Virus record (IMG/VR): IMGVR_UViG_2537562194_000030
Location: 1 to 15,821 of that record
Direction: 5' to 3' (one strand)
Length of the DNA stretch: 15,821 nucleotides
Source: a virus
Lineage: Duplodnaviria; Heunggongvirae; Uroviricota; Caudoviricetes
Positions 12,001 to 15,000 of the stretch are shown in pieces (position 1 is the stretch's first letter; each line of letters starts with the position of its first letter). The position numbers are program-made.

Positions 12001-15000
12001 GGCAGAGTACTAAAGATATTGATGAGTGGATAAAAGATGAACGGATAGTATATCCCTCAAGGGTGATCAACCAGGAGATTGATAATTACTATTTTCAAAA
12101 AAATGCAAAAATTTCCACTGAAGAGAGGCAAAGAGTCTTTTTTCTTGTGAGCCAGGAGAATCAACTAACCCTTGATGTTAAGGCAGCACAAAGTTCTATT
12201 AATCATGTAATAATGGGGAGTGCTTCTTTTGGCAAGAAAATGGATGCTCTTTGTGATGGTATGAGCCGGGATGTAAAAAATCGTACATCAGATACCATAG
12301 CAAACTTGCTTGCGGACAAGTTTTACCAGAAACATATCGATTCGGATATTGATATTGTAAAACTACGAAATGATATCCCAGATTATTTGATGCGTGCTAT
12401 ACAGGGATGAGGCTAGAGGAGAGGACTGCTTCAGCATCATCGGCTTCGGACCAGTAAAAGAGACGCAGAAAATGCACAACGGCACCACACGCCATGCATG
12501 GATTCAGATTACTCATGGCTCACCAGTACAGCTATAAATCGTAAAGAAAACTACAGTACGTTATACACAGAAACGTACCGTGATTCATTATTTATTGTAC
12601 AGGTTCATCGCAGCGACAATATTTTGTGATGTTTGCGTGGTGCGCCCCACTTCAGGATGCTGCAGATCTGGAAATTGCAACGGAGGAAGAAACCTCATTG
12701 CTGGAAGCCTAGAAAAAGTATCGGGTGTTGCTGAACCGTGTTGATACATCAACTGCACCTGATATTGAGTGGCCGGAAGAACCAGACACAATGTAAGCGA
12801 AAAAGAAAAACCGCAGACACGACGTATGCAGGACGTGCTGCGGTTGGCTGGTGAACTTTCGATAGTGCGAGTATTGAATGATTTCCAGCCGTTACCGATT
12901 TTACGTGTTAATTAGTGAACAAACCACTCGTCAGCAGACTTCCAGGTATCTTTCAGAGTCTCCTGAACAAAAGTTTTAGCTGAATCTTTATCGGCGGTGC
13001 GCGTAACAGAAAGGCCATCGTTGCTGGTGGCTTTTACGATCACCTCTACATCGTCATAACGTTTACTGATGCGTCGGGTTAATTCTTCCTTTAACGCATC
13101 CACAGCACCGTTTGGCATTTTAGTCATTTTCTCTTTGGCTATGCAGATTTCAATACGCATAAAAATCCCTCTATACTGTGTTTGTATACAGTATTATTTT
13201 TATCTGTATAAATAAACAGTGTCAAGAGGTCTTGTTTCTGCTCTTTTGGAGTTCTTCAAAACGATTATGTAAAGATTTCGGATACAGTTCGGTATATACC
13301 TGCCATAGCACGTTTAATGAACGATGCCCTGTAACTTGAGCGACTTCCTCAATACTAAAACCAGCCTCAAATAAGCGACTTGCCCCTTCTCTACGCAAAT
13401 CATGATATCGCAGATCTTTAATACCTAATTTGCTTCTTACCCTCTGAAATCCTGCGGTAACAGAAGTGCTGTTATATGGAAAAATGAATTCTGATTTTTT
13501 TGGTTGTCGCTGGACGATATCCCAGGCTTCCCCAAGCAAGGCAACTTTCATATGGTTACCTTCCTTTTTACGTGGATCTTTCCTATCTCTTACTAGTATA
13601 GATTTTTGTTCTTGGTCGAGATCTTCCCATCGTAACCGGCATACTTCTCCGATTCGCATACAGGACCACACAGAAAATTTGAGGATATCAACGAACGGAA
13701 TTTTTGAGCATTTATGAGTAGATCGTTGTTGAAGGCCTTCAATGAGCATGTCAAGTTCATCAGATGCTGGTCTACGATTACGACGGTTTGATTTACCAAT
13801 CAAACCGAGTTTAAGTAGATATGGACGAGCGCTTTTCGCCGGGTTTGATGTGTAATTGATTCCGTATACAGGTTTTGCCGCATCCAGAACACTGCCAAGA
13901 TAACTAACATCGTGGCTGACTGTTGCTGGGCCTGCACCAGCGTTGTTTCTTAGCCTGCAATGTTCAATTACGTCATTTTCTGTCAGTTCAGATAGTTTGA
14001 TCGCGGATATGTCACTATCCATAAGCAGTTCCAGCACATATCTTTTAGTACGGCCTGCTTTACCTCCGGCATTTGGGTCATTTAAATATTTGTGTAGTAA
14101 GTCACGGACTGTAAGTCCGTCAACTGCATTTGATGATGGAATGCCATATAGATCTAATTCCATCACTTTCTGTGTGCCCCATGTTTTGGCATGAGCATGT
14201 TTAGGGAATGTTTTGCTTTCCCTGTAAGTGATAACACCTTTTTCTTTGATAATCACATTACAGCGATAGCGTGGTGTGCCATCGGATTTTAGTCGTTTCT
14301 CTATGTTATAGTACGCCATTACACGACCTCGTTATTTCGGGTTCCCATAAAACGTGGGAACCTGTGCGGGAACCTAACGCGAGAAAAATAGCCTGAAATG
14401 TTCAAAAATGCACGATAATCATGAAGCACAAAAAATTAATCAAACCAGCGTGATGCCTGAAAAAACTGGTGTTTACTGGAATTCTCGGTTTAGCATTGCT
14501 CCTATGCTCGACTGGACGGACAGACATTGCCGCTATTTCTTGCGTCTGCTTTCCCGCAATACGTTGCTGTATACCGAAATGGTGACCACAGGGGCGATTA
14601 TTCACGGTAAAGGTGATTACCTGGCGTACAGTGAAGAAGAACATCCGGTAGCGTTGCAACTCGGCGGTAGCGATCCGGCGGCGCTGGCACAGTGTGCGAA
14701 GCTGGCAGAAGCGCGTGGATATGATGAGATCAACCTGAATGTCGGCTGCCCGTCTGACCGGGTGCAGAACGGCATGTTTGGTGCGTGTCTGATGGGTAAT
14801 ACGCAGCTGGTTGCCGACTGCGTGAAAGCGATGCGCGATGTGGTGTCGATTCCAGTGACGGTGAAAACGCGTATTGGCATCGATGACCAGGACAGCTATG
14901 AATTTCTCTGCGATTTCATCAACACCGTTTCCGGCAAAGGCGAGTGTGAGATGTTTATCATCCACGCACGTAAAGCCTGGCTTTCGGGGTTAAGTCCGAA

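Follow-up and report, generated by a model that had tools for sequence, protein, structure and literature searches.

Does a dinI-like gene next to the integrase of a prophage constitute an SOS-controlled unit, and could its product tune RecA-dependent repressor cleavage and hence prophage induction? The question arises from a stretch of viral DNA of 15,821 nt (IMG/VR record IMGVR_UViG_2537562194_000030, positions 1–15,821; hereafter the window), for which an original prediction had placed a prophage dinI homologue with a near-consensus LexA box next to the integrase, at 12799–13193. The locus occupies the attP-proximal end of a lambdoid prophage in dusA of an EHEC O111-type E. coli.

The dinI-like coding sequence (12912–13160, minus strand) specifies 82 amino acids followed by a stop codon. 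A Shine-Dalgarno sequence, GAGGG, was read off the minus strand at 13167–13171, 6 nt before the ATG, and a purine-rich block occupies this position in all aligned homologues. Identification of the product as a prophage DinI homologue is borne out by Pfam DinI (PF06183, E 1.1e-18, 67.7 bits versus a cut-off of 24.2), with residues 16–80 aligning to profile positions 1–63 of 63, by PHROG 189 ‘RecA filament binding protein DinI’ (E 2.4e-30), by PDB entries 1ghh/7ywa (E 2.9e-12) and by 45% identity to K-12 DinI across its full length (residues 1–81, E 1e-20). Its score against the NCBIfam equivalog for chromosomal DinI, NF007893, is 69.9 bits and thus under the cut-off of 111, so that a biochemistry identical to that of chromosomal DinI is not guaranteed. 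Judged by sequence, the protein is a ‘DinI-like’ paralogue rather than an orthologue of chromosomal DinI, and RefSeq annotates it likewise. DinI contacts the RecA filament via a hydrophobic pocket (L13, L21, W71, W77, F78) and an acidic patch (E24, E69, D76) (PMC9926225). All eight contact positions are retained in the window protein (M15, L23, W73, W79, F80; E26, D71, E78), five as identical residues and three as conservative substitutions. In the C-terminal helix, lysine takes the place of the acidic K-12 residue E72, a position at which mEp460 has glutamate. By analogy with its homologues, the window protein probably binds RecA filaments; it matched none of the PADLOC defence-system models.

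The region upstream of this gene appears to have the anatomy of a LexA-repressed SOS promoter, a reading supported by the arrangement of its elements. A promoter scan placed a -35 hexamer, TTGACA, at 13220–13225 and a predicted -10 element, TAAAAA, at 13197–13202, both on the minus strand, and phage mEp460 carries an independent annotation of this promoter. This -10 is weak, which counts against the reading; AAAAAT at 13196–13201 is an alternative, given an 18-nt spacer. The site singled out originally, TACTGTGTTTGTATACAGTA at 13174–13193 (unstranded; TACTGTATACAAACACAGTA on the coding strand), indeed qualifies as a near-consensus LexA box, agreeing with the consensus TACTGTATATATATACAGTA at 17 of 20 positions and being the sole site with at most three mismatches in the 15.8-kb window (none in 200 dinucleotide shuffles). 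It begins 3 nt past the -10, spans the predicted transcription start and ends 13 nt upstream of the ATG at 13160, just upstream of the gene as had been claimed. A second LexA box, CTGTATAAATAAACAG, was overlooked at that stage; this distal box (13202–13221, unstranded; core 13204–13219; ATCTGTATAAATAAACAGTG on the plus strand) occupies the spacer of the TTGACA-17-TAAAAA promoter. The motif CTGT-N8-ACAG occurs in the window only in these two boxes, with 0.19 occurrences expected. On an approximate matrix of our own, built from about 22 operator sequences (only that of the K-12 dinI box verified), which does not exactly reproduce published heterology-index values and serves relative ranking only, heterology-type scores of 2.6 for the proximal and 5.7 for the distal box fall among those of proven operators of E. 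coli. No LexA box was detected elsewhere in the window, the arc/ant insert at 355–2038 included, the next best score being 14.8; best chance scores in shuffled windows were 8.9–12.2, the best of 20 shuffles reaching 8.9. Both operators overlap the predicted core promoter of the dinI-like gene, and by comparison with homologues this cassette is probably bound by LexA and induced in the SOS response.

At its other end the gene is closed by an intrinsic terminator (12799–12845, minus strand), identified by RNA folding. A stem-loop, AACCGCAGCACG...CGUGUCUGCGGUU at 12845–12809, is followed by the run UUUUUCUUUUU, and the fold of 12795–12915 on the minus strand reaches -31.3 kcal/mol (z = -3.2), with none of 200 shuffles equally stable. 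A simple consensus terminator scan found nothing because loop and bulge exceed the limits of the scan. Homology to other phages spans from the terminator (~12808–12823) to the -35 at 13225 and ends there, so that an own promoter and terminator bound what is shared, as expected for a ‘moron’. The extent originally given starts at 12799, which coincides with the end of the terminator T-tract, and is too short at the other side, where the functional unit reaches 32 nt further, to the -35. Taken as a whole, 12799–13225 on the minus strand is very probably a self-contained prophage moron consisting of a sigma-70 promoter, two LexA operators, one gene and a terminator.

The terminator also bears on whether the LexA promoter serves an antirepressor, with dinI as a leading or fused passenger. 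There are precedents for both arrangements: in the Gifsy prophages of Salmonella, a LexA-controlled dinI-antirepressor-irsA operon starts with dinI (dinI-gfoA/gftA-irsA; Lemire et al. 2011; PMC3121763), and the LexA-controlled Tum protein of coliphage 186 carries a DinI-like segment fused to an antirepressor (PMC3121763). In the window, however, the terminator begins 66 nt after the dinI-like stop codon with no plausible ORF between them, and the next minus-strand ORF is a 67-aa frame with a TTG start, antisense to a tail-fibre-assembly remnant; the terminator thus closes a one-gene moron with no downstream antirepressor gene, and an operon of the Gifsy type was rejected. A fusion of the Tum type was likewise rejected, as the DinI domain covers the entire 82-aa protein, compared with the ~146 aa of Tum. 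The sole antirepressor in the window, a P22-type ant at 920–1965, is 11 kb distant, broken by a frameshift and without a LexA box. We consider an antirepressor module of either kind highly improbable here.

Upstream, the moron borders on a tyrosine integrase of the dusA-targeting mEp460 type (13222–14319, minus strand; 365 aa, intact), a neighbor outside the cassette. It matches Pfam Phage_integrase (E 1.1e-20) and is identical to the mEp460 integrase at 360 of 366 aligned positions (365 aa plus stop); dusA begins at 14408, 88 nt beyond it. The integrase directly precedes the dinI-like gene in the same orientation, with a distance of 61 nt between its stop codon and the ATG of dinI, and the adjacency that had been noted is real. 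The -35 overlaps the integrase stop codon TGA (13224–13222), the distal box abuts it, and no terminator separates the two genes; the LexA boxes might on these grounds act on the integrase, as a roadblock or by control of int transcription at its 3' end, with dinI being incidental. Comparative data contradict this reading. The same promoter/operator block accompanies dinI, without an adjacent integrase, in YYZ-2008, PPyecE, Stx2c_JNE082642, PhiR12_4 and JLK-2012, and conservation in integrase-free copies ends at the -35. Thirty E. coli genomes, taken as a rank-spread sample, included 12 with an adjacent integrase and 17 without. Integrase control is scarcely credible in view of these copies. 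The cassette adjoins attR without an integrase in YYZ-2008, Stx phages, PPyecE and PhiR12_4. As the -35 is the precise edge of homology between copies, and attR rather than an integrase adjoins many of them, adjacency to the integrase is incidental and has no particular significance.

Conservation of the promoter follows the elements of the proposed moron. Among 15 aligned promoters from E. coli, Shigella, Mixta and Erwinia, the -35 and the AAA core of the -10 are invariant, as are the CTG and CAGT positions of the proximal box (15/15) and the CTG and CA of the distal box, the last G of which is kept in 14; box centers and all sequence upstream of the -35 vary. Across Enterobacterales, CTG-N10-CAG is present within 100 nt upstream in 73 of 80 DinI-family loci (background 0.023 per 100 nt), pointing to near-universal LexA control in this family. 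The cassette recurs in mEp460 and in Stx1/Stx2 phages. Of 5426 complete E. coli genomes, 1876 contain the promoter/operator stretch, which occurs up to five times in EHEC genomes. Anatomy, conservation, family membership and retained RecA contacts of the cassette can be regarded as established at the level of sequence.

Not every copy is intact, and the locus might have lost its function and be decaying within a defective prophage. The whole window was present in no complete genome, the best matches being O111 strains at 89% coverage and 98.8% identity, and the prophage's nearest relative in a complete genome is defective, having an IS1203 in its early region and a frameshift in its portal gene. 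In JLK-2012 the cassette is decaying (a triplet lost in both boxes, W71 changed to R), and Stx2a phages carry a truncated copy without promoter. Decay of the window copy is nevertheless very improbable: its ORF, ribosome-binding site, promoter, both boxes and terminator are intact, the phylogenetic footprint across promoters is strong, and a dN/dS of 0.07–0.25 against homologues indicates, as far as sequence comparison goes, that the gene is under purifying selection.

How the moron would act can be outlined from its layout. In an undamaged lysogen, LexA dimers on both operators, one between -35 and -10 and the other over the transcription start, would keep the promoter off, whatever the prophage's own repressor does. 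DNA damage would produce RecA filaments and LexA self-cleavage, upon which the promoter would become active and lead to accumulation of the 82-aa DinI homologue. This protein, like host DinI, is expected to lie in the groove of the RecA filament, the site for LexA, UmuD and CI-type repressors, where it would stabilize the filament and compete with these substrates. The net effect would be additional DinI dosage from the prophage, timed by SOS; consequences for prophage induction, for UmuD cleavage or for the fitness of the host are speculative.

This applies also to the role put forward originally, in which phage DinI, once induced by SOS, would specifically tune how RecA promotes cleavage of the prophage repressor; it would then set the induction threshold or timing of its own or of co-resident (e.g. 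Stx) prophages. We infer the repressor of this prophage from its relative in O111 11128, since no complete genome spans the window; that relative encodes a CI-type repressor with HTH and peptidase S24 domains, of the RecA-cleavable class (CI/LexA-like), so that the proposed cleavage target plausibly exists. Retained RecA-contact residues and the multiple promoter/operator copies per EHEC genome are likewise compatible with such tuning. On the other hand, in the only related experiment located, non-polar dinI deletions in Gifsy-1 and Gifsy-3 did not significantly change induction (PMC3121763), an imperfect test in that Gifsy repressors are not cleaved; the cassette persists in defective prophages as well, and no sequence feature links it to repressor or integrase. 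A limitation of induction by phage DinI has, moreover, already been published as speculation (PMC8456039). Repressor tuning is therefore possible, but we regard it as doubtful. A more elaborate proposal appears unlikely to us: that the two-operator, phage-type DinI clade is a dedicated prophage device, released only upon strong or sustained SOS, that occupies the RecA groove and slows cleavage of CI-type repressors and UmuD, and that in poly-lysogenic EHEC sets the induction threshold, arbitrates between co-resident prophages and influences Shiga-toxin output.

The self-contained moron is an ordinary, widespread prophage cargo, real but not unusual, and LexA-regulated prophage dinI genes have already been published for Gifsy, PhiKO2 and Serratia OS31. 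Searchable literature yielded no functional or experimental study of E. coli prophage dinI-like copies, and supplements of ciprofloxacin EHEC transcriptomes contained nothing on DinI-like genes. The practical value of the finding is small and consists in a common SOS-responsive prophage promoter, present in about one-third of complete E. coli genomes. As entries in the databases show the gene (for mEp460 also its promoter) but not its LexA operators, the cassette ought to be included when the accessory SOS regulon of E. coli pathogens is counted. EHEC strains would make several additional DinI-like proteins during SOS, which could matter for RecA-dependent induction of Stx phages and for SOS mutagenesis experiments, and which would mask phenotypes of chromosomal dinI deletions. 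The role of any prophage DinI is a minor question.

Compared with known systems, the unit resembles chromosomal dinI of K-12 (b1061; PDB 1GHH, 7YWA), an SOS gene modulating the RecA filament, in family, length, fold-level alignment, sequence identity and RecA contacts, and in being a single-gene unit that ends in its own terminator and has its core promoter overlain by a LexA box. Unlike K-12 dinI, which has one box over the -10, the window gene is prophage-borne and has two boxes, in the spacer and over the transcription start, and the promoter sequences of the two genes are unrelated. The dinI-like gene c0943 of CFT073 is reported to co-vary with sulA, umuD, recN and dinI (PMC2817434). With the Salmonella Gifsy prophages the window shares a prophage dinI homologue with a LexA box near its ATG; the homologues of Gifsy-1, -2 and -3 are LexA-controlled and induced 23-, 14- and 4.6-fold by nalidixic acid (PMC3121763, PMC8072944). 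In Gifsy, however, the downstream antirepressor is the key payload, one box is reported and dinI lies 1.3 kb downstream of replication genes, whereas the window gene is monocistronic, has two boxes and no antirepressor, and lies at the tail-fibre/att end. Tum of phage 186 differs by its N-terminal antirepressor half (146 aa in total), the window protein being a DinI domain only. Closer in layout, by description, are Klebsiella PhiKO2, whose dinI-like gene is reported to be LexA-regulated (PMC7556043), and Serratia vB_SspS_OS31: both have the gene facing the tail-fibre genes, placed and oriented as in the window, with a near-consensus LexA box ~14 nt upstream, although OS31 has a translationally coupled second gene downstream, unlike the window. 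The closest counterparts are mEp460, phage cdtI, VT1-Sakai, YYZ-2008 and many Stx1/Stx2 phages, which carry the identical cassette with a protein 92–98% identical and no differences of substance. In those examined for it (mEp460, YYZ-2008, PPyecE and Stx2c_JNE082642), promoter, operators and terminator are as in the window, and mEp460 also has the same integrase alongside the cassette.

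We identified the product of the minus-strand ORF at 12912-13160 (82 aa) as a clear DinI-family protein, in line with the original prediction of a prophage dinI homologue. It matches Pfam PF06183 (E 1.1e-18, 67.7 bits against a cut-off of 24.2) and PHROG 189, “RecA filament binding protein DinI” (E 2.4e-30), is 45% identical to E. coli K-12 DinI over its whole length, and matches the solved DinI structures 1GHH and 7YWA. With a dN/dS of 0.07-0.25, the coding sequence is evolving under purifying selection. Cryo-EM and mutagenesis place E. coli DinI in the RecA-filament groove, with a pocket of L13, L21, W71, W77, and F78 and an acidic patch of E24, E69, and D76 (PMC9926225). 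The window protein carries M, L, W, W, and F in the pocket and E, D, and E in the patch, i.e., five identical residues and three conservative substitutions, which makes RecA-filament binding its best-supported putative biochemical activity.

As proposed, a near-consensus LexA box lies just upstream of this gene. This proximal box, TACTGTGTTTGTATACAGTA at 13174-13193, ends 13 nt from the ATG of the dinI-like gene and is the sole site in the window with at most three mismatches to the palindromic LexA consensus TACTGTATATATATACAGTA. No such site arose in 200 dinucleotide-preserving shuffles. A distal box, CTGTATAAATAAACAG at 13204-13219, had been overlooked, and the gap between the two is 12 nt. 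Together they are the only occurrences of CTGT-N8-ACAG in 15.8 kb, versus 0.19 expected. On an approximate heterology-type score built from known LexA operators, of which the K-12 dinI box alone was verified, the proximal and distal boxes reach 2.6 and 5.7 (known operators used, 0.5-9.7), the next-ranked window site outside them 14.8, and the top-ranked site among 20 shuffled windows 8.9.

On the coding (minus) strand, a -35 hexamer TTGACA (13225-13220), which shares bases with the TGA stop codon of the integrase gene (13224-13222), is followed by a 17-nt spacer made up nearly entirely of the distal box and by a -10 hexamer TAAAAA (13202-13197). The proximal box (13193-13174) begins 3 nt after the -10 and precedes a ribosome-binding site, GAGGG, located 6 nt before the ATG. 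This promoter was predicted by a promoter scan and had been annotated independently in phage mEp460 by its depositors, which would place the distal operator between -35 and -10 and the proximal one over the predicted start site. With two strong operators lying over it, the core promoter may be tightly repressed and perhaps released late.

At the 3' side of the dinI-like stop codon, a GC-rich RNA hairpin (12845-12809) is followed by UUUUUCUUUUU; the region folds at -31.3 kcal/mol (z = -3.2), with no shuffle equally stable. The interval between stop codon and terminator contains no ORF, and a degraded tail-fibre-assembly gene lies beyond on the opposite strand; the dinI-like gene is thus monocistronic. 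Made up of a promoter, one gene, and a terminator, the cassette (12799-13225) is a classical phage “moron”. The tail-fibre-assembly remnant (about 12645-12797, plus strand), which has an internal stop and lacks its N-terminus, abuts the dinI terminator directly. The terminator region is common to lambda and HK-type phages, where it is found downstream of tail fibre genes.

Conservation of the promoter was analyzed in an alignment of 15 sequences from E. coli, Shigella, Mixta, and Erwinia. Invariant positions are TTGA-A in the -35, AAA in the -10, CTG and CA(G) in the distal box, and CTG and CAGT in the proximal box, whereas the box centres and all sequence upstream of the -35 vary, the pattern that a LexA-repressed promoter is expected to show. 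Among DinI-family loci of Enterobacterales, CTG-N10-CAG is present within 100 nt upstream in 73 of 80, versus a flank background of 0.023 per 100 nt; the start is mis-registered in five of the seven loci without a box. A layout with two boxes, 15-17 and 42-44 nt ahead of the ATG, is characteristic of the window protein's closest clade: it occurs in 10 of the 13 loci with at least 55% identity to that protein. Of the 67 loci that are more distant, just one has a second box, at 77 nt from its ATG.

Cassettes with a 92-98% identical protein are carried by mEp460, phage cdtI, VT1-Sakai, YYZ-2008, PPyecE, and many Stx1, Stx2a, and Stx2c phages, and the 78-nt promoter/operator stretch occurs in 1876 of 5426 complete E. 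coli genomes, at up to five copies each. The position beside the integrase, also part of the original prediction, holds for the window, where int (13222-14319, likewise minus strand) lies directly upstream, and for mEp460 with the same int-dinI arrangement, but does not extend to the cassette at large. In YYZ-2008, PPyecE, Stx2c_JNE082642, PhiR12_4, and JLK-2012, no further gene lies between the dinI-like gene and attR or the end of the record, no integrase adjoins it, and nucleotide homology to the window spans the -35 hexamer to the terminator in all five. In a rank-spread sample (n=30), an integrase adjoins 12 copies and is absent beside 17. Adjacency is thus a feature of the mEp460/dusA integration module rather than of the cassette. 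Decayed copies were also found. In JLK-2012 (2751-2825 of its comparison locus, L008), CAG has become CAA in the distal box, CTG has become TTG in the proximal one, and W71 of the protein is replaced by R. Stx2a phages of the Stx2a_JNE121849 type (locus L009, 2501-2683) retain residues 11-71 only, the promoter being gone. Phage-type DinI cassettes with enterobacterial LexA boxes in a contig labelled Chryseobacterium sp. (L015) and a Saccharibacteria MAG (L016) likely reflect contamination or mislabelling.

The window represents the right arm of an EHEC O111-type lambdoid prophage located in the 5' end of dusA. The tail genes, J, lom, and the side tail fibre gene come first, followed by nleG, espW, and espM2, a tfa remnant, dinI-like, int, and dusA, which starts 88 nt past the integrase gene. 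No complete genome contains the entire window (best, 89% coverage at 98.8% identity). The closest annotated relative, a ~44 kb prophage of E. coli O111:H- 11128, encodes a CI-like repressor that combines HTH and peptidase S24 domains. This prophage is defective: its early region contains IS1203, and its portal gene is frameshifted. RefSeq also marks its integrase (locus L001, 20523-21621, 1099 nt) as frameshifted, whereas the window integrase is intact (365 codons). Aligned over 366 positions (365 aa plus stop) with its counterpart from mEp460, a viable phage, it is identical at 360. Tail genes L and K are separated by a ~1.7-kb insert (355-2038) that the O111 11128 relative lacks. It holds an Arc-like ribbon-helix-helix gene (371-715, minus strand) and, divergent from it, a P22-type antirepressor split between two overlapping ORFs (920-1648, P22_AR_N; 1540-1965, P22_AR_C). 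The insert resembles an immI-like arc/ant module in which ant is frameshifted, and contains no LexA-like box. A cluster of type III secretion effector genes (9241-12410) separates the tail fibre genes from the dinI cassette: an NleG fragment (9241-9720, plus), EspW (9850-10908, minus), NleG (10987-11637, minus), and EspM2 (11820-12410, plus). The dusA 5' end is replaced by prophage-end sequence (14408-14512) that shares just 84% identity with the native fragment displaced to the opposite end of the O111 11128 prophage, an expected outcome with integrases that target dusA. In that strain, the chromosomal lexA-dinF operon lies ~4 kb beyond the prophage left end (locus L010, 7780-8388; NC_013364.1 4952779-4953387), most likely a coincidence of the dusA map position.

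LexA, UmuD, lambda CI, and DinI use the same RecA-filament groove elements (PMC9926225, PMC9945995); the prophage would thus supply extra DinI, appearing only once LexA has been cleaved. That this DinI tunes RecA-dependent repressor cleavage, as originally suggested, is plausible in principle, with the CI/S24 repressor of the O111 11128 relative as a possible target. The sequence lends the idea no support, and it has already been voiced for Stx2a phages (PMC8456039); the suggested role is neither new nor supported. The sole related experiment found, in Gifsy prophages, showed no effect and is an imperfect test, because the repressors of these prophages do not undergo cleavage.

LexA-controlled prophage dinI homologues are an established kind. 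In Gifsy-1, -2, and -3, a LexA box precedes dinI, the first gene of an operon with an antirepressor (PMC3121763), and nalidixic acid induces these homologues 23-, 14-, and 4.6-fold, respectively (PMC8072944). The layout of a dinI-like gene lying opposite tail-fibre genes was described earlier for Serratia phage OS31 (PMC7556043), and in an array study a CFT073 dinI-like gene changed together with sulA, umuD, recN, and dinI (PMC2817434); our literature search turned up no functional work on the E. coli cassette itself. The assignment of the cassette to its family and to its mode of regulation is well supported, and it is common prophage cargo of an already recognised kind. To this we add the second operator, promoter, terminator, and moron boundaries, the contribution being the description of a conserved two-operator promoter and its distribution. 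Compared with Gifsy, the window cassette lacks an antirepressor and has two boxes; unlike 186 Tum, its protein consists of the DinI domain only; and relative to chromosomal dinI, the gene is a paralogue below the NCBIfam equivalog threshold with an unrelated promoter.
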